Virus record (IMG/VR): IMGVR_UViG_3300010049_000011
Coordinates: 81,123 to 145,122 of that record
Source of the DNA: a virus
Lineage: Duplodnaviria > Caudoviricetes
Length of the DNA: 64,000 nt
Strand: one strand, 5' to 3'
In this document: piece after piece, positions 16,803 through 31,514 of the stretch
Layout: each line of letters starts with the position of its first letter
How positions within the stretch are numbered: the first letter of the stretch is position 1
The notes under the pieces: model-generated
The model's input: only the letters and a program-made list of their open reading frames with translations
Told to the model about the DNA's origin: nothing
Databases searched by the model: none
Translations under genes and position numbers: made by a program

Positions 16803-17277
16803 AGTATCTAAAAAGTCCCCTTGCCTAGAGATAATCAACGTAGACTACGTGGACGTAAAAGGAAACAAAAACAAACTAGTCGACGTTTATCTACAGGTTC
16901 CTGGGTTACAAGACGTAAACGGGTGTGGTGTGTTTCTGGGAAGTCTAGTTTACCCTCTCAAGAAATTCCTTTGTGAGACAAAGAGGTATCCCGCCGAGAA
17001 TGCTTTCTTCGGGGAAGAATCTGTAGAGAAGGAGGTTCCTTTACCTGAAGGGTTCGAGAATGTCTGTGAGAAGCAAGTAGGAAAAGACGAAAGGATCTAT
17101 CGTTGGGCCTTCGATTCAAGGGAACCTCCTCTACAGGTTGTGTACTCTAAGAACAGATTTGGGTTTTGTCTCAGAGATAGAAAAGGTAATCTTTCTAGGC
17201 TTAACTTTAAAGATCTTTATTTCGTCGCAGGCCACAAGATCTCTGAAATCGAGAAGGTAAAACGTGAATACTCCTAA
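16792..17277 (+). CDS. Hypothetical protein
   Basis: Coupled ORF with SD. Confidence 0.55.
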   Translation: MKIKVSKKSPCLEIINVDYVDVKGNKNKLVDVYLQVPGLQDVNGCGVFLGSLVYPLKKFLCETKRYPAENAFFGEESVEKEVPLPEGFENVCEKQVGKDERIYRWAFDSREPPLQVVYSKNRFGFCLRDRKGNLSRLNFKDLYFVAGHKISEIEKVKREYS

Positions 17278-18160
17278 ATTATTTATACAGGCGGGGATAA
17301 GTGGAACGGGAAAGGGGGTAAGAGTATCCAGCCTCCTGGAATTTCTTAAGACCAAATTCGCTTGTGAATCTTACGTGATAGAGGAGTGTAACGGGTTCTT
17401 GTTCAAGAACCCTCCTCAGATAGCCGTAACCTTCCCGGAGATTAAGGTCGCCTTTATCGGGAAGTGGGTTAGATCTAATAAGGGAGAGAGGTTAATATCT
17501 TTCCAGGGTTTAGACGCCTACTCGTTCGATGGAGGAAAATCCTATCCGGCACTATGCGAGTACTTCTTGTCTAGAGGGTTCCATCTATTCGTAGAGGGTT
17601 ATTTTGCATTTAACGCTAGGATGGTTAACTTCCTTAAGGCAATCGGGTACTTACTTAACGACAGAAGCATACCTGAGTTTGCAGGAAATAAGTATTTTCC
17701 GAGCATAGTGCATTGGTTGTACTCCGACGTCGAAGAACTCCAACAGAGAATGCTTCAGAGGTCTGGGTCTCGTATAAAGGGAACTTGTTGGGGAGACAAT
17801 AAATCCTGCAATAAACCTGAGAACCAGAAGATCCGTTTGAAAGAAATGCAGGAATTTTCTTGGGGAGAAGGCCGAGGGATCGTAACTCCCGTAGAATACT
17901 CTTTTAAGAACGCTCAGGAAGACCCCATCTATTACGGAATGGTGTGTCTCGCGAAGATTGGTTACTCAGACCTCGCAAAACAGTACGCAGAGTCTGGAAT
18001 AAACACTCACAGGTCCGTGAACGATCCTGAAGGGAACTCTAAGTATTCTAGGAATATCCCTACGGACTCTTCTACGATCCATCGGATTAAAATCTCCGAC
18101 AAACTTTGCAACGAAATATTTACCAATCCCCGTGGTGGGGTTAAAAAGAAGGAGGCGTAA
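17264..18160 (+). CDS. P-loop kinase resembling 5-hydroxymethyluracil DNA kinase (5-HMUDK / Ploopntkinase1 type)
   Basis: GISGTGKG Walker A, then FIGKW...QGLD...LFVEG and R...RSG lid, the pattern of kinases linked to T hypermodification; consistent with the AADT/PLP genes nearby. Confidence 0.65.
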   Translation: MNTPKLFIQAGISGTGKGVRVSSLLEFLKTKFACESYVIEECNGFLFKNPPQIAVTFPEIKVAFIGKWVRSNKGERLISFQGLDAYSFDGGKSYPALCEYFLSRGFHLFVEGYFAFNARMVNFLKAIGYLLNDRSIPEFAGNKYFPSIVHWLYSDVEELQQRMLQRSGSRIKGTCWGDNKSCNKPENQKIRLKEMQEFSWGEGRGIVTPVEYSFKNAQEDPIYYGMVCLAKIGYSDLAKQYAESGINTHRSVNDPEGNSKYSRNIPTDSSTIHRIKISDKLCNEIFTNPRGGVKKKEA

Positions 18161-18741
18161 TGGATTGGGGGTACATACTTCTCTCTTTAGGAATTATTTG
18201 TGCGGGAGTTAGTTTGGTTAAGTGGGGTCTAGATCAGAAACACCCTGCTTACTACATTATAGGTTATAACAACAAATATCCCATAGGAATCTTAGGAATA
18301 GGAGACAATTTCTTCTACGATACCGAGTATTTAAAAAGCTTCACCTTCAAATTCTGGGCCAATAGATACCTAAAGGTCTTGGTTAATAGGCGGAAGAGTA
18401 GGAGTATGGAATCTAAGTATGAGGTTATATACTTGAGAGACTCCACAGACCTTGTGTCTGAGACGAGTAAAATAAGGGAGGAGAGCTTGAGAAAACATAG
18501 AGAGTGTAATGGAGCGTTCTTCGGGGAAGAACCTAAACCAGAACCTATATTAAGGAAGTGGAGGCCCGCAACTATTCCCTCCGGGGTAAAGAAGGGTTCT
18601 CTAAAGAGGATCTTGAGTAAAGATCTACCTAAGAAGAAAAGAGTCAGTAGATCTCCTGCTGTGAAAATTATTTCCCTAGCGGATCTTAAAGGTAAGAAGC
18701 TCGGAGTTACTAAGGCAGGAGTGCTTAAACTCGTAAGTTAA
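18160..18741 (+). CDS. Hypothetical membrane-anchored basic protein
   Basis: N-terminal TM segment, Lys-rich tail. Confidence 0.5.
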   Translation: MDWGYILLSLGIICAGVSLVKWGLDQKHPAYYIIGYNNKYPIGILGIGDNFFYDTEYLKSFTFKFWANRYLKVLVNRRKSRSMESKYEVIYLRDSTDLVSETSKIREESLRKHRECNGAFFGEEPKPEPILRKWRPATIPSGVKKGSLKRILSKDLPKKKRVSRSPAVKIISLADLKGKKLGVTKAGVLKLVS

Positions 18742-18775
18742 GTAAGTCTATTATCAGTGTCGAGGAGAATATCTA

Positions 18776-19027
18776 ATGCCTAAAATTTATGTCCGTGTCG
18801 GTGAAGAAGACAAAGTAAGAGAACCCTTGAAGAAAGAAGACGTCTCTAGGTGTGAACAGATAAAACCAGAAGACATCGTTAAGTTTGACGGCAAGATGGT
18901 TCAGTACAGGTTTGGGGTGATCGGAGAATACCGAGAAGCTGTAAAGGAAGACGTTTATATTGAAGGCGTTCTCAGATGGTGTGGTAAATTCTATACAAGA
19001 AACTTTAATGGAGGAATAGTAGAGTGA
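18776..19027 (+). CDS. Hypothetical protein
   Basis: ORF with GAGGAG SD. Confidence 0.5.
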   Translation: MPKIYVRVGEEDKVREPLKKEDVSRCEQIKPEDIVKFDGKMVQYRFGVIGEYREAVKEDVYIEGVLRWCGKFYTRNFNGGIVE

Positions 19028-19674
19028 AAACAAGAAGGATTGCAGGAGTAGGGGCAGGAGGGTCAGGAAAGACCACTACCTTAGATCTCGTAGCGAAGAA
19101 GCTTAATATTCCAGTGGAACAAGTAACCACTAAACAGGTCAGAGATAAGTACTTACTAAACTCCCAAAACGAGATACTCGCTGTCGGGAATACAGTACCT
19201 CACATAGGGATAGCTTTTCAAGAAGAGATGATAAGAACCCGGAAGGACCACTTTGATTTTTTATGTGACGGGAAATGTGTTACTGAGTTCTGCACCGACC
19301 GCACCCCGTTAGACTCTCTGGCTTATACATACTTGCAGAACTCTTATTGGGATACCGAAGAGCATATAAACGTGTTGAAGGATCTCGTCAGAGACTCTGC
19401 TGATAATTATGACTATATTTTTATGTTCCCTACTGCAGTGTTCCCTATAGAAAATAACGGGCAGCGCGGTTTGAATAGAGAATATCATAGGATGGTCGAG
19501 ACGGTTATTCGTTGGCTTGCCCCCCAAGTTGGGTACGAGCTAATCGACGTACCAGTGTTCGACGATCTGGAAGCCCGCGCTCAGTGGATTTGTGATTACG
19601 TGAGTGGGGTATTCGAAACAGAAAAGATTAAAGAGATGGTGGACGATGTAGATTTTATCCACGAAGCGAGGTAA
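19024..19674 (+). CDS. AAA_28/NadR-like P-loop nucleotide kinase (candidate dNMP/5hmdUMP kinase)
   Basis: GAGGSGKTT, TDRTPLDSLAY, YDYIF, E.NG.R motifs. Confidence 0.7.
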   Translation: MKTRRIAGVGAGGSGKTTTLDLVAKKLNIPVEQVTTKQVRDKYLLNSQNEILAVGNTVPHIGIAFQEEMIRTRKDHFDFLCDGKCVTEFCTDRTPLDSLAYTYLQNSYWDTEEHINVLKDLVRDSADNYDYIFMFPTAVFPIENNGQRGLNREYHRMVETVIRWLAPQVGYELIDVPVFDDLEARAQWICDYVSGVFETEKIKEMVDDVDFIHEAR

Positions 19675-19675
19675 C

Positions 19676-20314
19676 ATGCTAACGTACATAGAAGTTTCGG
19701 ACAAATTCGACAGCGCAAGAAAGTCTGGTGTTAGTACTGCAGAACTCAAAGTCTGGGCCGAGCTGAGACATCTATATCAGTACAAGGCTATAGAGTTGGG
19801 GACAGACCCAGAATCCTTAGAGGAAGACGTTAGATCTAAAATCGTAAACAAGGCTCTAAAAGAACATAGAGAGACCTTCAAGGACATCGTAAGATATCTG
19901 CACGAAGAAGGGAAGAATAGCCAAGACAAGGGTGTACTGTTCCAAACGCAACGAGCGAGCGAAGAAGAGAGAATTATTAAGGTCCTCGAGAGTTTGTCGC
20001 CTAAAGAGTTGACTGTTGAGGAGATAGAGAGGGAGATACATACTATAAAGTTCTCCGAGGACGTAACGGAGTGGAAACAGGGTGATTGGGCGAAAAGGTT
20101 AAAGTCTGTTAAAGGTATGAGTATCGCTAGCGCGTTTGTTATTCTTAAGCGCTTGGGAATGCTGTGTCTGGCTTTAACTGCGGCGGCCTGTTCCCCTACT
20201 AAGGAAGCTCCTGCTACGATCGTACGAACCGTACCTATCTACGTAGTTCAATCTTGCGATTGTACTTTCGTGAACTACGGGGAATTAACTTGTAACGTGG
20301 AGGTATCAAACTAA
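19676..20314 (+). CDS. YqeY/GatB-like helical protein with a lipoprotein-like C-terminal segment
   Basis: K.....RE......E..I...LESLSPKELTVEEI pattern; LALTAAAC near the C-terminus. Confidence 0.45.
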   Translation: MLTYIEVSDKFDSARKSGVSTAELKVWAELRHLYQYKAIELGTDPESLEEDVRSKIVNKALKEHRETFKDIVRYLHEEGKNSQDKGVLFQTQRASEEERIIKVLESLSPKELTVEEIEREIHTIKFSEDVTEWKQGDWAKRLKSVKGMSIASAFVILKRLGMLCLALTAAACSPTKEAPATIVRTVPIYVVQSCDCTFVNYGELTCNVEVSN

Positions 20315-20928
20315 TGTCTAAATCCGGGAAAACTCCTCTAGCATACAACAAAGCCTCCCTCTGTGATAGGAGAATAGACTGGGAGAAGTATAAACCAACC
20401 CTGTGGGAATTGTTCCTAGCGGATTATTGGTATAACGGTTTCCTCCTACTATTCCGTAGAGGAACTTGGGTTAGGTTGTTACAGAGACTTACTAGGGGTT
20501 GGGACGATTCAGATACGTGGTCCTTAGATGTATCTGTAGCTAAGTTTTTGCTTCCTCGATTAAAGAGATATAGAGAGTTACGCCAAGGAGTCCCCGCGGA
20601 TTTGTATAGAGTGTGTTGTATGAAGTACACTCATAAGAGAATCAAGTCTGGGCAGAAGTACGAGGGCGAAGAATGCTACGAGTATATAAAAATAAAAAAC
20701 GACTGGGAACTCACGGAGAAGCAGTCTAGGGACGTCCATAATAAGGCTGAAAAGATGTGGGATACGGAAATCCGCGAGATGATAGATTGGCTTCAGGATA
20801 TTGTGGACGAGAATTCGGATGAGTTCTTCTCTCCCAAGTTCCAAAGGATTAGCCACGAAGAACGCGGCAAACTTCGTGAAAGAGGAAAGAAATTGTATTG
20901 TGAACGGTTTGAGGACTTGTGGTGGTAG
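20314..20928 (+). CDS. Conserved phage hypothetical protein
   Basis: RGWDDSDTWSLD...A.FLLPRLK ... F.DLWW pattern common in large phages. Confidence 0.55.
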   Translation: MSKSGKTPLAYNKASLCDRRIDWEKYKPTLWELFLADYWYNGFLLLFRRGTWVRLLQRLTRGWDDSDTWSLDVSVAKFLLPRLKRYRELRQGVPADLYRVCCMKYTHKRIKSGQKYEGEECYEYIKIKNDWELTEKQSRDVHNKAEKMWDTEIREMIDWLQDIVDENSDEFFSPKFQRISHEERGKLRERGKKLYCERFEDLWW

Positions 20929-21233
20929 CTGTGAATAAACTTACGTTAGGCCTATCGGCCACATCGATAGCACTTATCGGGCTGTTCTTCGGTCTCTGGA
21001 GATATAACGCCGCTAAGAGAGAGACTGCAGAGAATACAGTTAAAGAGAGGGATGCGACAATAAGCACTCTTAAGAAGGAAGTCGAGAACCAAGTAGCGTT
21101 CGTCAAGGCCAAGGATTATGAGAATAAGAAGATTCAGGCAGAGTACGAGTCGAGGTTAGCTTCGATCCCCAGAGACGAATGCGGCGACGCTAAACCTTCT
21201 ACGGAATTATTAAACTATTTGAGAGGGAACTAG
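20919..21233 (+). CDS. Putative inner-membrane spanin (Rz-like)
   Basis: N-terminal TM, coiled coil, C-terminal C...P...L..L. Confidence 0.6.
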   Translation: MVVAVNKLTLGLSATSIALIGLFFGLWRYNAAKRETAENTVKERDATISTLKKEVENQVAFVKAKDYENKKIQAEYESRLASIPRDECGDAKPSTELLNYLRGN

Positions 21234-21235
21234 TT

Positions 21236-21733
21236 GTGGAAGCGAAGAAAATTGTAGGGACTTTTTATTTAGAGCCAGACGAGCACATAGACTCTGATAC
21301 CGTTGTCCTAAAGTTCAAAACTAATAAGAGAAACCTAGTAATAGATACATCCTGTCCGGAAGCTGCTGAGTACGTTCAGACAGGGGATTATGTTATCCCT
21401 AAGGCGAACGAAGCTGGATGTCTGTCGGGGGCCTTTATGGTTGCCTTTGGAGACATTAAGTGCAAGGAATATCTAAAGACCTTGTACAAGGATCGGGATT
21501 ATTCCGAGAGGAACTGGTTCACAGGAGATCTGCACAGCAATTTCTATCTTCAGAATTTCCAGTTAGATCCCTTGCTCTTCGAGATCCAACCATCCGAGAT
21601 GTACGAACCTGAACACGAGAACCACGTGCCTTTAAAGGTGGCCTTTTTCAACTCCCTAATCGCGGACAAACCCGCCGCAGAGATTGAGTATTCGTTTTAT
21701 TTCGCTAAGAGGAAAGATGGGGTATCCGCATGA
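21236..21733 (+). CDS. Hypothetical protein
   Basis: ORF between the two spanin candidates. Confidence 0.5.
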   Translation: MEAKKIVGTFYLEPDEHIDSDTVVLKFKTNKRNLVIDTSCPEAAEYVQTGDYVIPKANEAGCLSGAFMVAFGDIKCKEYLKTLYKDRDYSERNWFTGDLHSNFYLQNFQLDPLLFEIQPSEMYEPEHENHVPLKVAFFNSLIADKPAAEIEYSFYFAKRKDGVSA

Positions 21734-21966
21734 ATTGTTCTGTCTCGAAGATACTACGGAGTCTCGCTCTATGTGTGGTCGTGGCAGGTTGTACCGTAGA
21801 GCGTAGAGACGTTATACAGACCAATCGATTCTATCAGGAGAACTTCGATAGCGGTTGCATTCGAGATGGGGTGTCTTTCTCAGAGATGATTCTGTGCCAG
21901 CAAAAAGACCTCAAGTCTGAGCATTCTCAGAACGAAATAACTAATAGACTAGTGTTTGGAGAGTAA
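21730..21966 (+). CDS. Putative outer-membrane spanin lipoprotein (Rz1-like)
   Basis: Signal peptide with VAGC lipobox, 78 aa, two further Cys. Confidence 0.55.
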   Translation: MNCSVSKILRSLALCVVVAGCTVERRDVIQTNRFYQENFDSGCIRDGVSFSEMILCQQKDLKSEHSQNEITNRLVFGE

Positions 21967-21968
21967 CG

Positions 21969-22151
21969 TTGGAAGATAAGAAAGATACGAAAGTTTCAAA
22001 CCCAAGCAGAACTAAGTGTGAAGTATGGACACGTGCTATGGGATACCATCGACCTGTCGAGAACTTCAACGTCGGAAAACGTTCTGAGTTTAAAGAGAGG
22101 GTTTTCTTCTGCGTGAAGAAGACTGAGAAGAGAGTACTGGAGATAGCTTGA
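21969..22151 (+). CDS. Stand-alone NrdD C-terminal (glycyl-radical loop)-like mini protein
   Basis: CEVWTRAMGYHRPVENFNVGKRSEFKER matches the RxxGY...GK..E...R tail of class III RNR. Confidence 0.8.
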   Translation: MEDKKDTKVSNPSRTKCEVWTRAMGYHRPVENFNVGKRSEFKERVFFCVKKTEKRVLEIA

Positions 22152-23230
22152 ATTACGGATTCAATAGGAGTGAGAGTAAATGGGAGGACTCTGTTTGGCG
22201 GTTAACTCCCGTAGAGATCCACGATACTCCTCTAGGAAGCATATATCTTAAACGCGAGGATAAGTTCTTCCTCGGAGGAGAGATGTTGTCTAACGGGTCT
22301 AAAGCTCGTCAAGGAGTATATCTCGCAAGTATGTACGCGAATAAACCCGAGATCCACACAATAATCTCTGGTATGGCTAAGAATTCCCCTTCACATTTTC
22401 ATGTTCCGTCTATAGCCAGGCACTTTGGCAAAAAGTCAGTGGAGGTGATTGGTCAATGTAGGCTAGATTCCAGGTTCCTGGAAGAGACTGAGATGTGCGC
22501 TGCTGCAAACTACCTTGGAGCGTCTTTCCTCCGCGCTCCGTGCAATTATAATGCGGTTATCCAAAAGACTGCTCTCGAGTACTCTAGGAAGGATCCAGGG
22601 GTGTATTACCTTGAATATGGAATCACGTTAGATCACAAGAAACATCCTTCTGAAGAGATCTTTTTCTTCCACAGAGTGGGGGCTAACCAGGTAAACAACA
22701 TTCCCTCACACATAAAGAAGTTGGTGATTGCGTTAGGTAGTGGAAACTCTGCTACGTCTGTGCTTTTAGGTATAGCGATGTTTAGAGATAAACTCCCGAA
22801 CCTTAGGAGTATTGAATTAATCGGGACAGGGCCGGATCACCTATATTACGTGAAAGAGCGTCTCAATACTATGTCGGAAGTCTCAGGAGTTGACACGGAC
22901 ATCTTTAAGTGGGAATACGCCTCTCTGGAACCTAGAATACTTCAAGGCGGAGGTCTGTTGGACTTCAGTGGAAAAATCCTAACAAGATTTCACGACTGCT
23001 CCGGATCCTTCGGTCTCTACAATTACGACATGAAGATACCTAACAAGATAGGAAACGTAGAGCTACACCCCCGCTACGAGGGTAAAATGTGGGATTATAT
23101 TAAGAGGTCCCATCCTAGCTGGGTCAACGAAGATACTCTGTTCTGGGTTGTGGGTTCTGAACTAAAACTAGACAAGCTTAAGCAGGCCGTAGACGGATAC
23201 GAAGGAAACCCTCAAGAAGTGTTTATCTAG
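22148..23230 (+). CDS. PLP-dependent fold-type II enzyme (ACC deaminase-like), predicted decarboxylase of amino-acylated thymidine in DNA
   Basis: LTPVE...YLKRED...NGSKARQ, SP, LGSGNS, LHPRYEGK, LFWVVG; lies next to the amino acid:DNA transferase. Confidence 0.8.
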   Translation: MNYGFNRSESKWEDSVWRLTPVEIHDTPLGSIYLKREDKFFLGGEMLSNGSKARQGVYLASMYANKPEIHTIISGMAKNSPSHFHVPSIARHFGKKSVEVIGQCRLDSRFLEETEMCAAANYLGASFLRAPCNYNAVIQKTALEYSRKDPGVYYLEYGITLDHKKHPSEEIFFFHRVGANQVNNIPSHIKKLVIALGSGNSATSVLLGIAMFRDKLPNLRSIELIGTGPDHLYYVKERLNTMSEVSGVDTDIFKWEYASLEPRILQGGGLLDFSGKILTRFHDCSGSFGLYNYDMKIPNKIGNVELHPRYEGKMWDYIKRSHPSWVNEDTLFWVVGSELKLDKLKQAVDGYEGNPQEVFI

Positions 23231-23242
23231 GAAGGAGAAGTT

Positions 23243-23581
23243 ATGGTTAGTATACAAAAGTCCTTAGGATTTGATTATACGGAGTTTACAGAAGGAAGAT
23301 TGTTTTGTGTGTTAGACGTTCACGGAATGTCTTTAGATAGCAGTTATAGGTATGTTCGAGGATCTATTGAATATCTCTACTCTCAGAATCTTCGCAACGT
23401 TAAAGTTATTACAGGTCACGGAGAAGTGTACAACAAGCTCGAGGAGTGGCTCGAAGACATGTTTGACTCGTTTATTTCGATGGATCGGAAGAATGGCTGG
23501 TATGAAATAACTCTAAGGAAACAGGAACATCTACGTGCTTCTAGCCTGCGTAAAGGATCTAATTGTGGAAAAAGACTATAG
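23243..23581 (+). CDS. Stand-alone Smr (small MutS-related) domain protein
   Basis: LDVHGM...VKVITGHG....L.EWL motif. Confidence 0.8.
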   Translation: MVSIQKSLGFDYTEFTEGRLFCVLDVHGMSLDSSYRYVRGSIEYLYSQNLRNVKVITGHGEVYNKLEEWLEDMFDSFISMDRKNGWYEITLRKQEHLRASSLRKGSNCGKRL

Positions 23582-24677
23582 GATCAACGACCTCGCGACC
23601 CGTCAAGAGTACTTCGATGACTGGTTCGCGTTTATGGCTGAGTACGGCATCTTCGCAGGATGTGTTCAGCTATATTTTCCTGAGTTCGCGAAGAGATTGA
23701 ATCTGAGTCGCGAGCAGAGGTTCTGGTGGGCCTGGGTAAACTCCCACTGCCAGAATGCTTGTGTGACATATACGATCACGAGGTTCTTCCCAGACCTCCC
23801 TCGAACCGAAGAAGAAATATCTCGCCTGGAAGAATGGTACAGTAAAAACTGGCGTAGAATGGAGTACGACACGGACCAACGTTATAGAAAGGCTAAGCTC
23901 GTTAGCGAGTTGCGTGATTATTTGTCTCTTTTAAATGGTAGGACCCAAGAGCAGGTTTTCGACGTTGATCTAGCAGACCCTGACCCAAAGAAATACTTCC
24001 GTAACGTGCATGACTTTATCGAACAAATAAAGGGTTGGGGAAGACTCACTTGCTGGTCTGGGACAGAATTCTATAAGTGTCTAGCAGATCTCCCTGTCGA
24101 GTGGGATTCTTTCATGATGTATAACGTTGATGGGTCAAAATCTCACAGGAACGGGTGTTTCAAATCCTACGCTAAGGACGACTTAGTGTGGGATAAGAGA
24201 GAACCCGTCTTCGACGAGAAGAACAGACCAGATTCCCAACTCTGTTCGTTCGCAGAATCTTTAGGTTGGCAGACCGTAAAGAGGTTGAGAGAGAAATATA
24301 AAGAAAAACCCTGGTTCAGGTTTATCGGGCCGGAGACAGTAGAGACAGCCTTCTGCTCTTACAAGAACAGCTTTTACGGACGCAGGTACGTAACCGTGTA
24401 TTGTGATATGTCTTATAAACGGATTAAAAGAGCGGAGAGGGATTGGCCAGAAGTGAACTACTCTATCTTCTGGGATATACGCAGAGAACGCCTCCCTAAG
24501 AAGATTCTCCTCGAGTATAACCCTCGAGATGCGGAGATATGCAACTCGATGTCCGATCTATCTAAGGTTAAGAAGGCGCACGTGTTTAAGGAAACTGGAA
24601 CCCCTCCTATGATGTCCGTCTTATTTCCGGGTAAGTATCGCAGCAGTTATGATGAAGAATTTTTGGAACAGAATTAA
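23565..24677 (+). CDS. Amino acid:DNA transferase (AADT, aGPT-Pplase2 family) for thymidine hypermodification
   Basis: EQRFW.AW.N...QN, W...W..MEYDTD.RY.K, GWGRL..W...E, GSKSHRNG, ETAFCSYK...RRY..VY.DM motifs; GTG start at 23565 after AAGGA. Confidence 0.85.
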   Translation: MEKDYRINDLATRQEYFDDWFAFMAEYGIFAGCVQLYFPEFAKRLNLSREQRFWWAWVNSHCQNACVTYTITRFFPDLPRTEEEISRLEEWYSKNWRRMEYDTDQRYRKAKLVSELRDYLSLLNGRTQEQVFDVDLADPDPKKYFRNVHDFIEQIKGWGRLTCWSGTEFYKCLADLPVEWDSFMMYNVDGSKSHRNGCFKSYAKDDLVWDKREPVFDEKNRPDSQLCSFAESLGWQTVKRLREKYKEKPWFRFIGPETVETAFCSYKNSFYGRRYVTVYCDMSYKRIKRAERDWPEVNYSIFWDIRRERLPKKILLEYNPRDAEICNSMSDLSKVKKAHVFKETGTPPMMSVLFPGKYRSSYDEEFLEQN

Positions 24678-25950: not shown

Positions 25951-25960
25951 AGACACCTAG

Positions 25961-28264
25961 ATGGCAGCAACAGTATTTCTTCCTCGCAGAGGCTCAACGT
26001 CCCAGATGGCGTTATTCACCGGACAACCAGCCGAGCTAACAGTAGATACTACTAAGAGTGTTGTAGTTATGCACGACGGTATAGTTCCTGGGGGCTACCC
26101 GCTGTTGAGGGAAGATTTCGGAAACGTAAACCCTGCTACCGCAGCAAACTCCCTAATAGCCCTCAGGTCTATGTCTAACGTTTCTCCAGACAGTATTGCT
26201 CAGCTAGGAATAGCTTACGCTGACCTGAATAACATGACGAATCTATCGAGTCAGGGTAAGTCTGTTATTCTTGAGTCTATAACTCCTTCTGATCTAGACG
26301 GACTCGGAGCAGCCTTGGTAGACATGTCTAACGTCTCTTTATCTGCTGTGTTGGATCTTGGAGTAGCCGCCCAAGACATGACTAATGTGAATAGGCAGAA
26401 CGTGCTAAACTTGGGTATAGCTTCCAGCACCCTGGCCGAGAACACGGATATACTCTCTTACATTGATCCCTTAGCAAATAACGATTTATCGAACATAAAT
26501 TGGGATGCTGTAGATTTCTCTGCGATGCCTCTATTAAACGTAGACGGGTCTAATGCAGCGTCAATAAGTAAGGTTTTGACCCAGTCTCTGAGAAACTTGG
26601 TTATTAACGGAAACTTCTCTGTAAACATCGGAGATTACGTTCCGGGTACTCCCGTGTCTGTTCCTGTAAACCCCGATCCGGAACCCCTACCTCTATATAC
26701 CGGTTGGAGCACCGTTGTAGATGGATCTTACGTTGATAAGACTCAAACATCTTCTTCGGGACAAGACCCTATCGGATCATCCATCGTGTTTGGAGAAATA
26801 TTCTCTGACGTATGCGATTGGCAGGAGACTCAGTTCAATAGGAGCTCTCCTAGCATAACTGCTTGGTTTACTTCGCAAACGTATGTTGAAGACGGTTCCT
26901 TCCAAATAAACCTCATCTCTGAAAATGGAACCGTAACCTTATGGAGCTTCGGCCCGTTTACGGAAGACGCCAACAACCCAGGACTATGGGTCGGTGATAA
27001 CCCTTTAACAAGCACGGCTGCTAGCGCTCTAGAGACGTTCAGAATTCAAATAATCTCAGGAACTTCAGGGTCGTATAAAGAAACTACGTTCAACATGCTA
27101 ACTCTAGATTTGTGCGGCCACGTATCCCCGTACGAACAGAGGCCGATTACTTTAGAGAAGTGCTTAGCTGCTGACCCCGTACAGATGGTCCAGGACGAGA
27201 CTGAGAGAGCTATAGCAGCAGAACGTGCACTACAGGCCCTCGGAGGCAAGTGGATCGGTGAGAATTTCCCTAACTACTACATGTCTCTTCCGTCAACGGT
27301 TAACTTTATTAGGCCCTCTAACTTTGATCCAGTCGGGTATAATAACGTAGAGTTTGCTTCCTTAACTGATCTCCAAAACGCTGACCCGTCTCCCTCAGAA
27401 GGAGATGTAGGTATAGTAACAACGGACTGGAGGACAGTAACTTACTACTTATACACGAGCGGATCTTGGGTTGCTCAGACCCCGGACGCTAACTCAGCCT
27501 ACACATACTTGCAGGGAGTCGTAAGTGGGTCTAACCCGACTCCTGACCCGAACGATTGGTTTAGGATTCAGCAAGACATGCCTAGAGGAGGCAATACTAC
27601 TCAGTGGGTTTGGTCTACAGCAGTTTCACAGACTCAACCTACGTTTAACTTTAACTTTATACTATCTATAAAACCTAGAGATTTTGAGACCGACCCCATA
27701 CAGTTAGACGAGACGTCTACAGTAATACAGACTTTATTGTCTTACGTGGATACGGGAGACAGTATTTCGACTCTGTTGGCCGGTAAGCAGAACACAATAG
27801 GGCTGACTCCAGGGTTCTTTGTTCTGCGAGGAGATCCTACAGGGTCTTTTATCCAGAATACTTGGGTCGTATCTACCTCTGATTCTTACGCTGTATCCAC
27901 AGACAGTGAGATTTACACTGCGGCGCGAGTGGATGCCTTGGTGGCAGCTTCGATAGGATCTATCCCTATTGGAGCACTCCCCTTGCTTCCTACTAATGTA
28001 GGGCAGTATACTCTGTCGTACGACGGGACTAACTATTCTTGGAGGAACCAGCAGTTCCAAGAAACGGATTTAACCCCACAGATAACTGGGTCTAACACAG
28101 TATTCAATATTAGCTCTCTGATAAACAACACTTGCTACGTCCAGGTCTTCTTTAACGGGTTAAAACAGAGGGCTACTAACTTTACGATAAACTATAGTGC
28201 GTTGACGCTGACCCTCGGATTCACTCCGGCTACGACAGACGCCTTAGAGATAGTGTGGGTCTAG
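25961..28264 (+). CDS. Long tail fibre protein with Mtd_N-type N-terminus
   Basis: RRGS......FTG..AELTVDT....VVMHDG...GG.PL; repeated LG.A..DM.NV; NLVINGNF domain; C-terminal VFFNGLKQ..NF. Confidence 0.75.
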   Translation: MAATVFLPRRGSTSQMALFTGQPAELTVDTTKSVVVMHDGIVPGGYPLLREDFGNVNPATAANSLIALRSMSNVSPDSIAQLGIAYADLNNMTNLSSQGKSVILESITPSDLDGLGAALVDMSNVSLSAVLDLGVAAQDMTNVNRQNVLNLGIASSTLAENTDILSYIDPLANNDLSNINWDAVDFSAMPLLNVDGSNAASISKVLTQSLRNLVINGNFSVNIGDYVPGTPVSVPVNPDPEPLPLYTGWSTVVDGSYVDKTQTSSSGQDPIGSSIVFGEIFSDVCDWQETQFNRSSPSITAWFTSQTYVEDGSFQINLISENGTVTLWSFGPFTEDANNPGLWVGDNPLTSTAASALETFRIQIISGTSGSYKETTFNMLTLDLCGHVSPYEQRPITLEKCLAADPVQMVQDETERAIAAERALQALGGKWIGENFPNYYMSLPSTVNFIRPSNFDPVGYNNVEFASLTDLQNADPSPSEGDVGIVTTDWRTVTYYLYTSGSWVAQTPDANSAYTYLQGVVSGSNPTPDPNDWFRIQQDMPRGGNTTQWVWSTAVSQTQPTFNFNFILSIKPRDFETDPIQLDETSTVIQTLLSYVDTGDSISTLLAGKQNTIGLTPGFFVLRGDPTGSFIQNTWVVSTSDSYAVSTDSEIYTAARVDALVAASIGSIPIGALPLLPTNVGQYTLSYDGTNYSWRNQQFQETDLTPQITGSNTVFNISSLINNTCYVQVFFNGLKQRATNFTINYSALTLTLGFTPATTDALEIVWV

Positions 28265-28268
28265 TAAT

Positions 28269-28646
28269 ATGGACGAATATAGGCAATTATCCACAGGGGT
28301 GCTCGAAGTAGTCCTTCAGCGCCAGGGAACTGTCAACTGGCACGACTTAATGTTGTCTACATCAAACGGTGGTGTGGCTCTAAATACCCCTCCTGTGACT
28401 ACTATAGATCCCGATTCAGGAGTTATAACTACCGTTGTAGGGAACAACGTAACCAAGACTCGGATTGTCAGACCCCAACCCAACGACTGTGGTTGGATGG
28501 ATGGTACCCAGACGCATTCTTTAGACTTAGGAGTGATTGGAGATCTTGTTGACGATTCTCTTGACCTAGGATCTCCAACTAATGTTGTAGAGCAGCCTTG
28601 GATGGTTATGCCTGAAGATATTACTCTTCCTTGGGTTTCTGTTTAA
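28269..28646 (+). CDS. Probable virion-associated hypothetical protein
   Basis: Follows the tail fibre; LDLG repeats. Confidence 0.45.
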   Translation: MDEYRQLSTGVLEVVLQRQGTVNWHDLMLSTSNGGVALNTPPVTTIDPDSGVITTVVGNNVTKTRIVRPQPNDCGWMDGTQTHSLDLGVIGDLVDDSLDLGSPTNVVEQPWMVMPEDITLPWVSV

Positions 28647-28726
28647 ATTTATTTAATACCTTTGCTAGGTTATTACTATCACACCTAAACTTTTCACTTG
28701 CCTTTTGGAAAGAAGCAAGCTATAGT
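28645..28726 (+). promoter_or_regulatory. Early sigma70-type promoter repeat, copy 2 (drives glyA-hydroxymethylase)
   Basis: TTGCCT (28698) -17- TATAGT (28721); CTTTGCTAGG at 28660-28669. Confidence 0.85.
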
Positions 28727-28778
28727 TCGTTCTGAGTTGTGTCCGCAAGTAAAATGTTTGAAGGGAGATTACGGTTGG

Positions 28779-30167
28779 ATGTGTGTTATGAACTATAGAG
28801 AAATAAGCTCGGACTTACAGATCTGCGTAAACGGGCAGAAGAAACAATACGCAGATTCTATCCAACTTATAGCCTCAGAGAATTACCCAAGTCAAGCAGT
28901 TCTCGATCTCATGGGTAGTTGTCTGTCTGCAAAATATTCCGAAGGATATCCAGGTAAAAGACATTACGGAGGTTGCTCGATAGTTGATGAAGTTGAGCAA
29001 TTCGCAATAGACAAGGCGTGTGAGTTGTTTAAATGTGATTATGCGAACGTCCAACCTTGGAGCGGAAGCCAAGCCAATCAGGCGGTGTACTTAGCTTTCC
29101 TAAAACCGCATGAAGTTATACTGTCTATGTCTTTGTCTAGCGGAGCTCACTTAACTCACGGAAGCAGGTTTACTTCCTCCGGTAAGTTTTATGTTCACAA
29201 GGAGTTTGATCTTGACGAGAATAACGAGATAAGCATGATTCTTTTGAGTAAGTCTCTAAAGGAACACCAACCACGTATGCTAATCATGGGGTACTCTGCG
29301 TACTCCCGAAAGATTAGCTTCGCACAAGTGCGTGAAGAGGTTGATCGCCACAACACTTGGTTGTGGTTGCACTTAAAAGAGATGTCTATCGGTATAGAGG
29401 AAGCGATCGTAGAGGAAACTTACGAGAGTAAGAAATGTCTCTTGATGGTCGATATGGCCCACTTTGCGGGTATAGTAGCAGCCTCCACCCGCACGAACGT
29501 TCAAGATCTGTTAAACGACGCAAACCTGTTGTGGGAAGATGAATGTCTCCCGTTCCCCTATGCAGACGTCGTGACTAGCACAACCCACAAGACTTTAAGA
29601 GGGCCGAGAGGAGGCCTTATTCTCTGGAACGATGAATCCTTTACTAACAAGATAAACCATGCAGTATTTCCAGGCATCCAAGGAGGAGCCAACCAAGCAA
29701 CAATAGCAGCGAAGGCCCAGTGTTTTATAGAGGCCCTGGACTCTGAGTTTAAAAGATATATAAACAACGTTCTCAGGAACACCCAGGCCTTAATCAGAGG
29801 ATTGCTCAGTACTGACGATAGGCTGAAGGTAGTGACTGGGGGTTCTGACAACCACATGATTTTGTTGGACTTGAAAGGGATTAACTTACTGGGGTCGGAC
29901 GCTGAGTCCGCATTGGAATCTGTAGACATCATCTGCAATAAGAATTTAATGCCGGGAGACAAGAAACCCGCTGAATCTTCTGCTATACGTTTAGGGACAG
30001 CCGCTATGACTTCGCGAGGGTTCACAGAACAAGTGTTCGAGGACTTAGGAGTTGTGATTGCCAAAGTGTTAGCGAAAGCTGCAGGAAGATGTCTCTTCTA
30101 CGAGGATAAGACCGTTTACTCGAGACAGGTTGCTGGTTGGGTTAAAGAGTTCCCGTTGGAGTATTGA
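28779..30167 (+). CDS. glyA: Serine hydroxymethyltransferase
   Basis: LIASENY, KYSEGYPGKRHYGG, NVQPWSGSQAN, GAHLTHG, DMAHFAG, TTHKTLRGPRGG, VFPGIQGG, IRLGTAAMTSRG; two insertions near the DMAH motif; start is 28779 or 28788. Confidence 0.97.
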   Translation: MCVMNYREISSDLQICVNGQKKQYADSIQLIASENYPSQAVLDLMGSCLSAKYSEGYPGKRHYGGCSIVDEVEQFAIDKACELFKCDYANVQPWSGSQANQAVYLAFLKPHEVILSMSLSSGAHLTHGSRFTSSGKFYVHKEFDLDENNEISMILLSKSLKEHQPRMLIMGYSAYSRKISFAQVREEVDRHNTWLWLHLKEMSIGIEEAIVEETYESKKCLLMVDMAHFAGIVAASTRTNVQDLLNDANLLWEDECLPFPYADVVTSTTHKTLRGPRGGLILWNDESFTNKINHAVFPGIQGGANQATIAAKAQCFIEALDSEFKRYINNVLRNTQALIRGLLSTDDRLKVVTGGSDNHMILLDLKGINLLGSDAESALESVDIICNKNLMPGDKKPAESSAIRLGTAAMTSRGFTEQVFEDLGVVIAKVLAKAAGRCLFYEDKTVYSRQVAGWVKEFPLEY

Positions 30168-30344
30168 ATAATGTGCTACGATGTATTTTGGTGCCCTATG
30201 TGTCGAGGTTCTGGTAAGATCTTGAGTTGCGACGTGTTCTCGTTCTTATGCGGGCCGAGATTCGAAGTATGTACGTTCTGTCGTACCTGGAGTGGTTGAT
30301 TGTGTTCTGAGTTATATTGAACAACCGTGTAAAGGAGGAAAATA

Positions 30345-31493
30345 ATGCCGTTTAAATTTGCAGAAAAGAAGTATATCCACCGAAACGCAGACACTCTGAT
30401 CGTGGATATCGTGAAGGACTTGAGAGAGATAGACGATGTCCAACAGTCCCGCCTCGGAGATTACACCAAGGAGATTCTCGGGGCCTCCTCTGTCTTGACC
30501 GATGCCCGGAATGTGTGGCAGACCAATAAGGGGAGGAAATATAATTTTATCCACGCCATCGCAGAAACTGTCTGGATGCTATCCGGGAACAAGGATCTAG
30601 ACTTCCTTGAAAAGTTTCTTCCACAGTGTCGAGCGTTCTCGGATGATGGGTTACATTGGCGTAGTTGTTACGGTCCGAGAATCCGTAATTGGGTCGGAAG
30701 GAACGATAACAACTACTGTCGTAAAGGAGAACCCGAAGAAATGGTTCTCGACCAGTGGAAAAATGCTATAGAAGAACTCCAAACGCGACCGGACTCTCGA
30801 CAAGCTATAGTTCAGATATGGGATCCTTGTGTTTGTGGAGATTTCCGTGGCCGCGAGAAAGTTCTCGACAGGGCGTGTAACCGCAGTGTTGACTTCAAAC
30901 TGCGGGATAACAAACTGTCTATATTTATTGAAAACAGGAGCAACGACGTCTACTGGGGGTTGTCTTCCATAAATCTTGTTGAGTTCAGTATAATGCTCCA
31001 ACTAACCGCCTCCGTACTCGGTTGCGAGTTAGGGCACCAACAACACGATTCGAGATCTCTCCACGTCTATAACAGGCATTTCGATAAAATTGAAGAGTTA
31101 CTGACGGACAAAGAATTGCTCGAAGATTTTAGCATATCCAACACTGAGGGGGATTCTTGTAATTTTGAAAAGTTGCCGAACTTCGCGACACTATCAGATA
31201 TATTGGATCTTACGTATAAGAACATTGAACATGCAACGAAGAATCCTGGGAGGAAACATTTACTGGAACCTAACGACCTCTTGGAGGGACGTAGGGAAGA
31301 TAAACTGTCCGAATATGCGAAGCTCTACCCCAATATAGTATATACTTTAAACATCCCTGTGTTGAAGTACGTTGAGGAAGATTCCCTCCGCGGAGAAGTC
31401 TTCGGCCTTATGAACAGGAATCTACACCCTGCCTTGAAAATCCTCCTCGAAAGGAAGTACTTGAAGGTAGACGCAGTTATTATCGGGGGTTAG
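30345..31493 (+). CDS. Thymidylate-synthase-fold dUMP hydroxymethylase (predicted)
   Basis: YGPRIR, DSRQA..IWDP, catalytic ACN, RSNDVYWG...N (Asn = dUMP specificity), SLHVY; divergent from canonical ThyA. Confidence 0.8.
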   Translation: MPFKFAEKKYIHRNADTLIVDIVKDLREIDDVQQSRLGDYTKEILGASSVLTDARNVWQTNKGRKYNFIHAIAETVWMLSGNKDLDFLEKFLPQCRAFSDDGLHWRSCYGPRIRNWVGRNDNNYCRKGEPEEMVLDQWKNAIEELQTRPDSRQAIVQIWDPCVCGDFRGREKVLDRACNRSVDFKLRDNKLSIFIENRSNDVYWGLSSINLVEFSIMLQLTASVLGCELGHQQHDSRSLHVYNRHFDKIEELLTDKELLEDFSISNTEGDSCNFEKLPNFATLSDILDLTYKNIEHATKNPGRKHLLEPNDLLEGRREDKLSEYAKLYPNIVYTLNIPVLKYVEEDSLRGEVFGLMNRNLHPALKILLERKYLKVDAVIIGG

Positions 31494-31514
31494 GTTGGAA
31501 TTATTCTAGCGTCT

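Follow-up and report, generated by a model that had tools for sequence, protein, structure and literature searches.

A predicted ViI-type thymine hypermodification gene set with a serine hydroxymethyltransferase gene adjoining the dUMP hydroxymethylase gene in a large uncultured phage

Results

Gene content of the locus

The window, that is, the whole stretch of DNA analyzed here, comprises the final 64 kb of a 145-kb contig with an estimated completeness of 58%. Its source is a large uncultured phage, whose portal protein was at most 30% identical to that of any cultured phage. An initial annotation had listed a thymidylate synthase (TS)-fold enzyme, a 5-hmdU DNA kinase, an amino acid:DNA transferase (AADT), a PLP-dependent enzyme, two further P-loop proteins, a MazG-like pyrophosphatase, and a serine hydroxymethyltransferase (SHMT) gene, glyA. 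All of these genes were found at or near the positions proposed for them, and their family matches exceeded curated cut-offs (Table 1). The pathway genes were dispersed, as had been described, and the ViI genes are likewise scattered.

Table 1. Features of the pathway locus (window coordinates)
Feature	Position	Strand	Basis
MazG-type NTP pyrophosphohydrolase	4666..5049	+	PF03819, 28 bits (cut-off 22), E 2.7e-6
5-hmdU DNA kinase, HMUD2 type, ViI gp243-like	17264..18160	+	PF18747, E 2.9e-18
AAA_28 P-loop protein	19024..19674	+	PF13521, E 1.3e-9; phrog_2107 'thymidylate kinase', E 4e-14
PLP-dependent fold-type-II enzyme, ViI gp226-like decarboxylase (predicted)	22148..23230	+	phrog_3650, 4e-70
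AADT / aGPT-Pplase2, ViI/Montesquieu subfamily	23535..24677	+	PF18724 (ADDT), E 1.5e-19
Promoter-like repeat before glyA	28661..28727	+	TTGCCT-17-TATAGT plus conserved upstream box, ~67 bp
SHMT, glyA (start revised from mechanical 28698)	28779..30167	+	PF00464, E 5e-118
42-aa Cys-rich small ORF (CPxC...CxxC), glyA-hydroxymethylase gap	30171..30299	+	Read from sequence
dUMP hydroxymethylase, TS superfamily (predicted)	30345..31493	+	Thymidylat_synt, E 2e-24
AAA_28 P-loop protein, directly 3' of hydroxymethylase	31515..32057	+	PF13521, E 1.3e-7; phrog_2107, E 9e-14

Copies of the promoter-like element were counted across the whole contig at ≤16 mismatches over 67 nt. Five copies were detected, one of them at window positions 33057-33123 and another, on the minus strand, upstream of the HMUDK_hel operon. 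The copy at 28661 is followed by glyA, the 42-aa Cys-rich ORF (no Pfam match), the hydroxymethylase gene, and a P-loop protein gene, in this order. The earlier proposal that these genes lie behind one early promoter held in that the repeated element precedes glyA with no further copy before 33057; a scan of this region for generic sigma-70 sites did not bear it out, as their number was not above chance. SHMT and hydroxymethylase apparently form one operon.

The mechanical glyA ORF (28698-30167) overlapped the promoter-like element with its first 27-30 codons. The true start is probably ATG 28779 or 28788. The public gene call encodes 459 aa, and ATG 28779 is preceded by an RBS (AAGGGAG).

Enzymes of the predicted pathway

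The 30345 protein carried Asn at the position of E. coli N177 in the alignment, as noted before. Its best phage matches were SPO1 gp29, ViI thyA, the SP10 dUMP hydroxymethylase, and Montesquieu MONT_51, with BLASTP scores of 120-150 bits to these phage hydroxymethylases compared to 59 bits to E. coli ThyA. It displayed Cys-Asn instead of Cys-His, FSDDG, NRSND, Asn177, Phe in place of Trp83, and a long helical C-terminal extension, a signature set common to five known dUMP hydroxymethylases and missing from E. coli ThyA and T4 td. In the tree, the TS clade was set apart from its hydroxymethylase group with support of 97/96. It is the sole TS-family gene of the whole contig, in which (58% complete by estimate) a second TS, ThyX, DHFR, and Tet/JBP were not found.

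The 17264 kinase had been annotated as a 5-HMUDK-like P-loop kinase, which agrees with its HMUD2 match and its Walker A motif (GISGTGKG). It was 28.6% identical to ViI gp243 across 203 aa (E 3e-13), and its tblastn matches were gp243 orthologues of Ackermannviridae. An HMUDK_hel gene was located beyond the window (genome 51341-52339, minus strand; PF18723, E 2e-36), and no HMUD1-type kinase (ViI gp67 type) was found in the contig of 58% estimated completeness.

The PLP enzyme, for which the Pfam search gave no match, was 32-35% identical to ViI gp226 over its full length and shared an insert with it. Its Schiff-base lysine, Lys52, aligned with ViI K92 and M6 K36. The AF2 model (pLDDT 88) best matched D-cysteine desulfhydrase and the ACC-deaminase homologue 1j0a in the PDB, both of fold type II as expected, and the Foldseek top matches were 7ysl and 1j0a. 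A PLP homologue occurred within 10 kb in 65 of the 80 related AADT loci, directly upstream of AADT in the loci inspected.

The AADT start given earlier (23565) is a GTG lying in frame 10 codons into the mechanical ORF, and the family assignment itself was upheld. The metal and base-clamp residues E270, T271, and C274 (E-T-x-x-C motif) were conserved. The glycine-binding W146 and K150 of PaMx11 gp46 correspond to L171 and S175, and both are replaced in ViI too. The AF2 model (pLDDT 88.6) matched PaMx11 gp46 in fold, its top three PDB matches being 8z2m/8z2n. In the tree, the AADT grouped with ViI gp247 in the PLP-associated clade, apart from the glycine and putrescine enzymes (SH-aLRT 99), as a deep, long, unresolved branch with 28-29% identity to ViI gp247 and at most 35% to any tree sequence.

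The two further P-loop proteins belong to AAA_28, and neither had PDB relatives. Homologues of the 19024 protein were present in just 2 of 80 related AADT loci. Atlas neighbours of the 31515 protein were phage AAA_28 clusters, in part auto-named thymidylate kinase; its position makes it a candidate 5-hmdUMP kinase. The MazG-type protein, also confirmed, is a candidate dTTP/dUTP-clearing enzyme by analogy with phage 15599, which has a dTTPase/dUTPase (PMC13458397). It showed no sequence similarity to the ViI dUTPase.

Beyond the window, the contig contains HMUDK_hel, dUTPase (genome 57784-58245), and NrdG, as well as five radical SAM paralogues, which are divergent and none of which resembled the M6 gp53 isomerase. 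Within the 64-kb window no radical SAM gene was found, as had been stated. No homologues of M6 gp53, PaMx11 gp47 (FAD lyase), or PaMx11 gp48 (acetyltransferase) were found in the contig. A dCMP deaminase, suggested for the rest of the genome, was not found in the contig either (58% complete by estimate).

SHMT and its distribution

The SHMT is intact: all 12 of the E. coli catalytic and binding residues checked were conserved, including K229, and PDB SHMTs matched at E 5e-100. The placement of glyA just upstream of the hydroxymethylase gene was confirmed with the corrected start. Its homologues in a phage-borne clade are 50-54% identical to it, have the same insert of ~30 aa, and are encoded on phage-like contigs as long as 248 kb.

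The relatives' SHMT genes sit in a conserved tail-tube/ClpP/RecA neighbourhood, and no TS gene was seen within 10 kb of them. In the studied phage, the RecA-to-dUTPase block is retained at genome 49-58 kb; the SHMT gene is no longer there and is now directly before the hydroxymethylase gene. A test for co-occurrence of glyA with AADT, as had been proposed, showed none: not one of the 80 related AADT loci had SHMT within 10 kb, and AADT was present in 0 of 4 SHMT-bearing IMG/VR phages, one of which (96% complete) had no TS at all. The nearest hydroxymethylase relative had no adjoining SHMT. The link of SHMT to the pathway is thus peculiar to the studied phage and not general, and because of the 0/80 loci and the clade without a nearby TS, it rests on adjacency in one genome.

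Comparison with known systems

For 5-NeOmdU, phage ViI (Salmonella, Kuttervirus) has a thyA-type dUMP hydroxymethylase, the 5-HMUDKs gp67 and gp243, gp160 (HMUDK_hel/aGPT-Pplase1), the serine:DNA transferase gp247, and the PLP decarboxylase gp226 (PMC5889632, PMC8989533). The studied phage displayed the same families (hydroxymethylase 37% identity, HMUD2 kinase 29%, AADT 29%, PLP enzyme 32-35%) and also HMUDK_hel, and its contig likewise lacked a gp53-type radical SAM, FAD lyase, and acetyltransferase. However, the proteins are just ~30% identical, the virion lineage is unrelated, the AADT donor pocket is not identical, the PLP and AADT genes are adjacent instead of 10 kb apart, and a gp67-type HMUD1 kinase was not found in the incomplete contig. 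A further difference is the SHMT gene ahead of the hydroxymethylase gene in the studied phage; two ViI stretches (47 of 157 kb) carry no glyA annotation, and no ViI-like phage was among the listed phage SHMT matches.

Glutamicibacter phage Montesquieu and metavirome clusters combine an AADT of clade 2 with an ACC-deaminase-like PLP enzyme, a P-loop protein, and a hydroxymethylase. Their AADTs are of the same clade as ours and 31-35% identical to it. These clusters have PLP immediately upstream of AADT and the hydroxymethylase within a few kb, as in the studied phage; Lee et al. 2021 (PMC8989533) listed clusters of this kind. Unlike the studied phage, the related AADT loci have adjoining HMUD1 (59/80) and HMUDK_hel (58/80) kinases, and HMUD2 or SHMT lay within 10 kb in none of the 80.

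Pseudomonas phages M6 and PaMx11 arrive at 5-NedU and 5-AcNmdU by way of a glycine:DNA transferase. They share with the studied phage the hydroxymethylase, the 5-hmdU DNA kinase, the AADT fold, and the metal/clamp motif, and the 22148 enzyme has a 25% homologue in the M6 PLP decarboxylase. In contrast, the studied AADT is without the glycine-binding Trp and Lys and lies outside the glycine clade, and the gp53 isomerase, gp47 lyase, and gp48 acetyltransferase have no counterparts in its contig.

The T4 dCMP hydroxymethylase likewise releases THF, recharged by SHMT without DHFR (PMC6400193), and T4 uses the host SHMT. Phage-borne SHMT also occurs in Aeromonas T4-like phages and ~240-kb metagenomic phages. 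The other SHMT-bearing phages examined had no adjoining TS-family gene and no AADT, in contrast to the one apparent SHMT-hydroxymethylase operon described here.

Discussion

The gene set points to the replacement of thymine by an amino-acid-derived base, a known kind of pathway of the ViI type. The core reading, in which a hydroxymethylase, a 5-hmdU DNA kinase, an AADT, and a PLP enzyme act together with SHMT adjoining, survived the tests run. We put the probability at about 0.6 that the phage carries out ViI-type hypermodification with a 5-NeOmdU-like product, SHMT recharging THF for the hydroxymethylase.

The steps proposed below are inferred from the family membership, conserved catalytic residues, and gene order observed for the five enzymes. 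dUMP would be supplied at least partly by the phage dUTPase, after class III ribonucleotide reductase. The pre-replicative steps would be expressed from the repeated promoter-like element. The 30345 enzyme would convert dUMP to 5-hmdUMP with 5,10-methylene-THF and release THF, which the apparently co-transcribed SHMT would recharge using serine, so that DHFR would not be needed. Hydroxymethylases are known to yield THF that SHMT recharges without DHFR (PMC6400193), and the two-enzyme folate cycle put forward earlier is therefore established biochemistry. The 31515 protein would, together with host kinases, phosphorylate 5-hmdUMP up to the triphosphate, the MazG-type enzyme may clear dTTP and dUTP, and the phage polymerase would build DNA containing 5-hmdU.

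The post-replicative enzymes appear to be encoded among late genes. The 5-hydroxymethyl group would be phosphorylated by the HMUD2 kinase, perhaps with the HMUDK_hel protein. The AADT would then swap the phosphate for an amino acid with a free alpha-amine, most likely serine via its hydroxyl, and the gp226-like PLP enzyme would decarboxylate the adduct to 5-(2-aminoethoxy)methyl-dU (5-NeOmdU) or a close analogue. In ViI, gp243/gp67, gp247, and gp226 convert 5-hmdU DNA and serine to 5-NeOmdU (PMC8989533). Since the kinase, AADT, and PLP enzyme are each closest to ViI among characterised counterparts, a 5-NeOmdU-like base formed via O-linked serine and subsequent decarboxylation is retained as the default prediction.

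The AADT is a deep branch with ~29% identity to ViI gp247, so its donor is not settled. It is conceivable, though we consider it rather unlikely, that it uses not L-serine but a different donor, for example threonine, homoserine, cysteine, or some other free-alpha-amine compound, giving an undescribed base after the PLP step. Donor choice in the family is set by few pocket residues, of which two suffice for a switch, and AADTs of one cluster can differ in donor (PMC13458397). Compared to ViI, the pocket differs at S175 (N189), A41 (N51), and K295/K298 (D310/D313), and several unassigned ORFs lie between the 17264 kinase and the PLP gene. However, these ORFs recur in 0 of the 80 related loci and several resemble lysis genes, the sole characterised AADT of the PLP-associated clade takes serine, and the PLP partner is gp226-like throughout, including the insert shared with ViI.

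A second alternative, to which we give a similarly low likelihood, is that this group of large phages carries SHMT as a general auxiliary metabolic gene that boosts one-carbon, glycine, or serine metabolism, and that its adjacency to the hydroxymethylase is incidental. The distribution described above favors it: the tail-tube/ClpP/RecA context of the homologues, the separate occurrence of SHMT and AADT, the SHMT-bearing phage without any TS, and the nearest hydroxymethylase relative without SHMT. Against it, the gene has moved out of the RecA-to-dUTPase block to directly before the hydroxymethylase, a single promoter-like element precedes both with no copy between them, and the two reactions are stoichiometrically coupled via THF/methylene-THF (PMC6400193). 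This alternative touches SHMT alone and does not conflict with the pathway reading.

That 30345 is an ordinary TS, with SHMT aiding dTMP synthesis and the kinase, AADT, and PLP genes being relics or having other targets, is highly improbable: Thymidylat_synt is its only Pfam assignment, and both enzyme types have the catalytic Cys, Asn177, and most of the dUMP-binding residues, but His147 and Gln165 are replaced by Asn, neither Trp80 nor Trp83 is kept, and the long helical extension stands in place of the TS C-terminal tail, all as in proven hydroxymethylases. In addition, hydroxymethylase scores are two- to threefold above ThyA, the contig has no DHFR to recycle DHF, and the genes downstream are all intact and retain their catalytic residues.

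Hypermodification of the ViI type with SHMT support stays the preferred reading. More than 1000 metavirome contigs with the pathway have already been catalogued (PMC8989533). What is new here is a divergent member of this pathway and a previously undescribed, apparent SHMT-hydroxymethylase operon, the SHMT link being a modest twist on a known theme.

Contig, lineage and gene confirmation

The window is the final 64 kb of a single IMG/VR viral contig of 145,122 bp, classed as linear, with nearly all genes on the + strand; the protein database also contains a 148-kb version of this contig. Its CheckV completeness estimate is 58%, so absence of a gene from the contig is no proof of its absence from the phage; the full phage genome is probably well over 200 kb. 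A near-identity DNA search of phage genomes with the region matched no cultured phage, indicating that this lineage lacks close relatives in culture. The portal protein shared at most 30% identity with that of any GenBank phage, the best match being Pseudomonas phage QdP_Psa3. The phage is an uncultured, deeply divergent tailed phage.

All genes named in the initial annotation were confirmed by profile searches, and every Pfam or profile score was above the curated cut-off. PDB sequence searches with both AAA_28 P-loop proteins and the PLP enzyme returned nothing useful. Judged by the profile matches, the presence of four pathway-specific families together in one genome cannot be chance. Several parts of the pathway lie outside the stretch that had been flagged initially.

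Table. Coordinates of the features discussed. Positions are those of the window; those marked "contig" refer to the whole contig.
Feature	Position	Strand	Match or remark
Promoter-like element, more diverged copy	2854-2920
MazG-type pyrophosphohydrolase	4666-5049		profile search
GroEL-type chaperonin	8617-10251	+	Cpn60_TCP1, E 2.5e-54
Portal gene (head)	12030
Protease-like gene (head)	14433
Terminator-like hairpin	16503
Predicted 5-hmdU DNA kinase	17264-18160		PF18747 (HMUD2, 5-hmdU DNA kinase 2), E 2.9e-18, 66.5 bits (cut-off 25)
AAA_28 P-loop protein	19024		profile search
Lysis-like gene	19676-20314	+
Lysis-like gene	20919-21233	+
Lysis-like gene	21730-21966	+
60-aa glycyl-radical ORF	21969-22151	+	last 32 NrdD profile positions (PF13597 531-562), E 2e-7
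PLP enzyme	22148-23230		phrog_3650, 4e-70; no Pfam match
Smr-domain ORF	23243-23581	+	E 1.6e-6
AADT	23535-24677		PF18724 (ADDT, amino acid:DNA transferase; aGPT-Pplase2), E 1.5e-19, 71.1 bits (cut-off 26.2)
Tail-fibre gene	25961
Promoter-like element	28661-28727
SHMT (glyA)	28698-30167		PF00464, E 5e-118, 394.6 bits, full length
glyA, 42-aa Cys-rich ORF, hydroxymethylase, AAA_28 protein, nuclease-like ORF (gene order)	28727-33057	+
42-aa Cys-rich ORF	30171-30299	+	no family match
Predicted dUMP hydroxymethylase	30345-31493		PF00303 (Thymidylat_synt), E 2e-24
AAA_28 P-loop protein	31515		profile search
Promoter-like element	33057-33123
CCA-adding/poly(A) polymerase-family nucleotidyltransferase	33289-34311	+
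Promoter-like element, more diverged copy	55320-55386
Radical SAM cluster	contig 2267-11135
RecA-to-dUTPase block	contig 49-58 kb
HMUDK_hel	contig 51341-52339	-	PF18723, E 2e-36
Promoter-like element	contig 53101-53167	-
dUTPase/dCTP-deaminase-fold protein	contig 57784-58245		E 4e-12
nrdD/nrdG genes	contig 58.5-62.7 kb

dUMP hydroxymethylase

The best matches of the thymidylate synthase (TS) homologue among 50,697 phage genomes were SPO1 gp29 (a dUMP hydroxymethylase according to its GenBank record), ViI 'thyA', the SP10 dUMP hydroxymethylase and Montesquieu MONT_51. BLASTP gave 120-150 bits to these phage enzymes, compared to 59 for E. coli ThyA and 49 for T4 gp42. The length of 382 aa was similar to that of SPO1 gp29 (383 aa) and the SP10 enzyme (382 aa).

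The protein was aligned with five known hydroxymethylases (SPO1, SP10, ViI, M6 and PaMx11), E. coli ThyA, T4 td and T4 gp42. The catalytic Cys (E. coli C146) and the equivalents of R21, R126, R166, S167, D169, H207 and Y209, which include the Arg/Ser that bind the dUMP phosphate, were all conserved. At the E. coli N177 position the protein carries the Asn of the uracil type, whereas cytosine hydroxymethylases such as MilA carry Asp. The FSDDG and NRSND motifs, a Cys-Asn pair where the synthases have Cys-His, and the loss of Trp80/Trp83 were shared with the five known hydroxymethylases, but not with E. coli ThyA or T4 td. Furthermore, a C-terminal helical extension of more than 100 residues replaces the short TS tail, as in the known hydroxymethylases. 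These signatures distinguishing hydroxymethylases from synthases are empirical rather than proven determinants. In an ML tree, the two thymidylate synthases were split from all other sequences with 97/96 support, and the protein was placed among the hydroxymethylases. These comparisons identify it as a predicted dUMP hydroxymethylase.

A TS profile search of the contig found this gene as the sole member of the family, and no ThyX, DHFR or Tet/JBP gene was found in the contig. A second TS at contig ORF 33275-34279, with a weak BLAST match to SPO1 gp29 (E 8e-4), was rejected, as Pfam gave only sub-threshold matches to unrelated families and the TS profile finds one gene.

Judged by portal and TS-like protein, QdP_Psa3 (locus L017, 2691-11539) was the cultured phage most closely related to the present one. 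It encodes a hydroxymethylase-type TS with the Cys-Asn signature next to nucleotide-sugar epimerase and UDP-glucose dehydrogenase genes, which hints that its 5-hmdU may be sugar-modified.

5-hmdU DNA kinases and nucleotide supply

The HMUD2-family protein retains the Walker A motif GISGTGKG and was 28.6% identical to ViI gp243 (E 3e-13). Its tblastn matches were gp243 orthologues of Ackermannviridae, and the protein is a predicted 5-hmdU DNA kinase of the ViI type. HMUDK_hel, of the former aGPT-Pplase1 family that includes M6 gp55 and ViI gp160, was detected outside the window. Compared to the full ViI kinase set, HMUD2 and HMUDK_hel are thus present, whereas an HMUD1-type kinase (ViI gp67 type) was not found in the contig, which covers about 58% of the genome. 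A dCMP deaminase was likewise not found in this portion. NrdG adjoins the dUTPase/dCTP-deaminase-fold protein, and this region may supply the route from NTPs to dUMP.

PLP enzyme

The PLP enzyme aligned over its full length with ViI gp226 (32-35% identity, E 3e-59), and the two proteins share an insert that is absent from the Montesquieu and M6 enzymes. Lys52 aligned with ViI K92 and M6 K36, which Lee et al. proposed as the lysines forming the Schiff base (PMC8989533), and was invariant in 29 homologues. An AlphaFold2 model built with the 29 homologues had a mean pLDDT of 88. Its best Foldseek matches in the PDB were D-cysteine desulfhydrase and the ACC-deaminase homologue 1j0a, with 7ysl, 1j0a and 4d8u at E values of about 4e-11 to 5e-11, and the model thus assigns the enzyme to fold type II. 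The same template was previously reported for gp226. Since these structural neighbours are lyases and deaminases, it is the homology with gp226 (35%) that carries the assignment of the enzyme as a predicted decarboxylase of an amino-acid-thymine adduct.

Amino acid:DNA transferase

The AlphaFold2 model of the amino acid:DNA transferase (AADT; pLDDT 88.6) matched the gp46 structures 8z2m and 8z2n with a probability of 1.00 and a TM by target of 0.62-0.65. These were the sole meaningful PDB matches, corresponding to the all-helical gp46-type fold, and the next TM was 0.15. In the crystal structure of PaMx11 gp46, Glu-Thr-x-x-Cys is the metal-binding and base-clamp motif, and Trp146 and Lys150 bind glycine (PMC11472151). 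The AADT residues E270/T271/C274 aligned with gp46 E243/T244/C247 and were invariant in six family members. The positions of Trp146 and Lys150 are occupied by Leu/Ser in the AADT, Leu/Asn in ViI gp247 and Leu/Ser in Montesquieu.

In a tree of 73 AADT sequences, a branch with SH-aLRT 99 split the glycine and putrescine transferases (M6, PaMx11 and PhiW-14) from a large clade comprising the present AADT, ViI gp247, Montesquieu and 67 metavirome enzymes. The AADT forms a long branch without a resolved position within this clade. It is therefore predicted to be a divergent ViI-type amino acid:DNA transferase.

PLP-AADT module and the amino acid donor

A PLP homologue was located within 10 kb of the AADT gene in 65 of 80 related IMG/VR loci, and in those inspected it lay directly upstream, as in the present phage. 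PLP-AADT is therefore a conserved module. A hydroxymethylase was present in 56 of the 80 loci. The sole characterised PLP-AADT representative makes O-seryl-thymidine and then 5-NeOmdU (PMC8989533). Using homology to 5-HMUDK, Lee et al. collected metavirome contigs, over 1000 in all, some of which carry clusters that variously combine an AADT with PLP, radical SAM and flavin enzymes (PMC8989533). In one IMG/VR contig (locus L073:2302-4437), a 711-aa ORF fuses a gp226-like PLP domain to an AADT; such PLP-AADT fusions were reported by Lee et al. 2021. The Smr-domain ORF between the PLP and AADT genes overlaps the AADT start, and none of the 80 related AADT loci contained a homologue of it.

In contrast to the M6 glycine route, no homologue of the gp53 radical SAM isomerase was found among the ORFs of the incomplete contig (BLASTP, E <0.01), and no ORF in the contig resembled the PaMx11 FAD lyase gp47 or acetyltransferase gp48. 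The PLP enzyme requires a free alpha-amine, and the contig contains no glycine-route isomerase or lyase; an O-linked (side-chain-linked) donor would therefore be the economical reading, with serine as the precedent.

A different donor is a realistic alternative, because the AADT is 29% identical to gp247, differs from it at several aligned donor-pocket positions, where the alignment is uncertain at this identity, and belongs to a family in which two substitutions can redirect donor choice (PMC13458397). That the deep-branching AADT uses a non-serine donor, which would give a new thymidine hypermodification in this phage, is a tentative proposal to which we assign a probability of about 0.3.

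The initial annotation had relied on the absence of radical SAM genes from the window, a premise that the rest of the contig qualifies. Outside the window, at contig 4.1-11.1 kb, lie genes for five radical SAM paralogues, each about 300 aa long with CxxxCxxC near the N-terminus (residues 12-32), and between them genes for another set of paralogues, 216-239 aa long, that have no assigned function. The radical SAM paralogues matched phrog_1802, and tblastn of one of them against 50,697 phage genomes, M6 included, gave no match. A role as gp53-like isomerases was rejected, as they showed no similarity to gp53 and their Atlas neighbours are phage-only clusters of generic radical SAM proteins. They belong to a phage-specific family distinct from gp53, and nothing points to an action on DNA.

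Seven window ORFs (16792, 18160, 19676, 20314, 21236, 25193 and 28269) had no Pfam or PHROG match and no homologue in the related AADT loci; nothing marked them as enzymes of base tailoring, and some resemble membrane or lysis proteins.

SHMT gene and its distribution

The mechanically called SHMT ORF starts inside a copy of the promoter-like element. An in-frame ATG at 28779 has the RBS AAGGGAG upstream of it; in the public gene call the start is 28788 (459 aa). The protein is intact and carries the TTHKTLRGPRGG motif. Of the E. coli GlyA residues for catalysis and for PLP and substrate binding, all 12 that were checked were conserved (Y55, E57, Y65, H126, D200, H203, T226, H228, K229, R235, P258 and R363). 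The protein has two insertions, one of which (about 30 aa) is common to a large phage-borne clade of 456-470 aa with 50-54% identity.

Members of this clade occur on phage-like contigs that reach 248 kb. In four of these contigs SHMT has conserved neighbours (tail tube, ClpP, RecA and GapR genes), and TS genes were absent within 10 kb; the clade neighbourhood (loci L108, L110 and L115-L118) also holds a 1220-aa protein and a dUTPase. SHMT thus appears, from these neighbourhoods, to be a widespread auxiliary gene of a large-phage group. The present phage has a comparable RecA-to-dUTPase block, and its SHMT gene is located at contig 109.8 kb, directly upstream of the hydroxymethylase gene.

A co-occurrence of glyA with AADT across phages, as had been suggested initially, was contradicted by the counts. 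SHMT was found within 10 kb of AADT in none of the 80 related loci, and AADT in none of four SHMT-bearing IMG/VR phages, one of them 96% and another 100% complete. Neither a hydroxymethylase nor an AADT gene was located within 10 kb of SHMT in any of the four SHMT-bearing contigs. The nearest hydroxymethylase relative (39% identity) is preceded by a homing-endonuclease-like gene rather than SHMT, and the thymidine-hypermodification literature searched does not mention SHMT. Therefore, as far as the present data go, the SHMT-hydroxymethylase link is specific to this genome.

Promoter-like element and operon organization

A 67-bp repeated element contains TTGCCT/TTGACT-17-TATAGT and a conserved upstream box (TTTGCTAGGTT...). 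Its copies include one preceding glyA, one following the nuclease-like ORF, and a minus-strand copy that heads a small operon ending with HMUDK_hel. The element, taken for an early promoter in the initial annotation, is a promoter-like repeat, of which the repetition itself was confirmed; in a generic scan for sigma-70 promoters and terminators, site numbers did not exceed those in shuffled sequences. No further copy was found between 28727 and 33057, and the hydroxymethylase gene has a strong AAAGGAGG RBS. The 42-aa ORF (CPxC...CxxC, zinc-ribbon-like) occupies most of the interval that separates glyA from the hydroxymethylase gene.

The kinase, PLP and AADT genes follow the terminator-like hairpin and lie among head, lysis-like and tail-fibre genes. 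An early nucleotide-pool operon separated from late DNA-level enzymes would make functional sense. The three lysis-like genes are located between the kinase and PLP genes. One encodes a protein with a TM segment and a coiled coil that weakly matches an Rz-like spanin; lipobox-like signals (LALTAAAC and VVVAGC) are present in two. The 60-aa ORF matching the glycyl-radical segment of NrdD is far from the nrdD/nrdG genes and looks like a free-standing 'spare-part' glycyl-radical peptide.

Proposed pathway and significance

The folate product of hydroxymethylases is THF, not DHF, and SHMT converts it back to methylene-THF with no need for DHFR, as stated for T4 dCMP hydroxymethylase (PMC6400193). 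Together, SHMT and the hydroxymethylase would convert serine + dUMP to glycine + 5-hmdUMP. The AAA_28 protein at 31515 is a candidate 5-hmdUMP kinase from its position and analogy, and MazG may clear dTTP/dUTP, from position and analogy with phage 15599 gp18 (PMC13458397). Following the published ViI scheme, 5-hmdUTP would be incorporated into DNA, the hydroxymethyl group phosphorylated, the phosphate displaced by an amino acid, and the adduct decarboxylated by the PLP enzyme.

The pathway is of a known kind, the contig is a very divergent new representative of it, and the SHMT-hydroxymethylase operon is a previously undescribed accessory feature. As far as the searched literature and the 80+ related loci show, this is the first phage with both halves of a DHFR-independent folate cycle adjacent to each other.

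Hypermodified thymidines shield phage DNA against nucleases, restriction enzymes included, and serve biotechnology as a source of DNA-modifying enzymes. The gene set is not surprising to a specialist; the contig adds a ViI-type set about 30% identical to the characterised enzymes from a lineage without cultured relatives. The contig is promising for the discovery of enzymes and bases, and its AADT and PLP enzyme lend themselves well to work on donor range. In the reading with a non-serine donor, SHMT would be co-transcribed with the hydroxymethylase, free the phage from reliance on the host for the one-carbon unit, and possibly tune the serine/glycine pool that supplies the donor. The logic of the pathway is established already; the pairing of SHMT and hydroxymethylase would imply that one-carbon supply can limit 5-hmdU synthesis.
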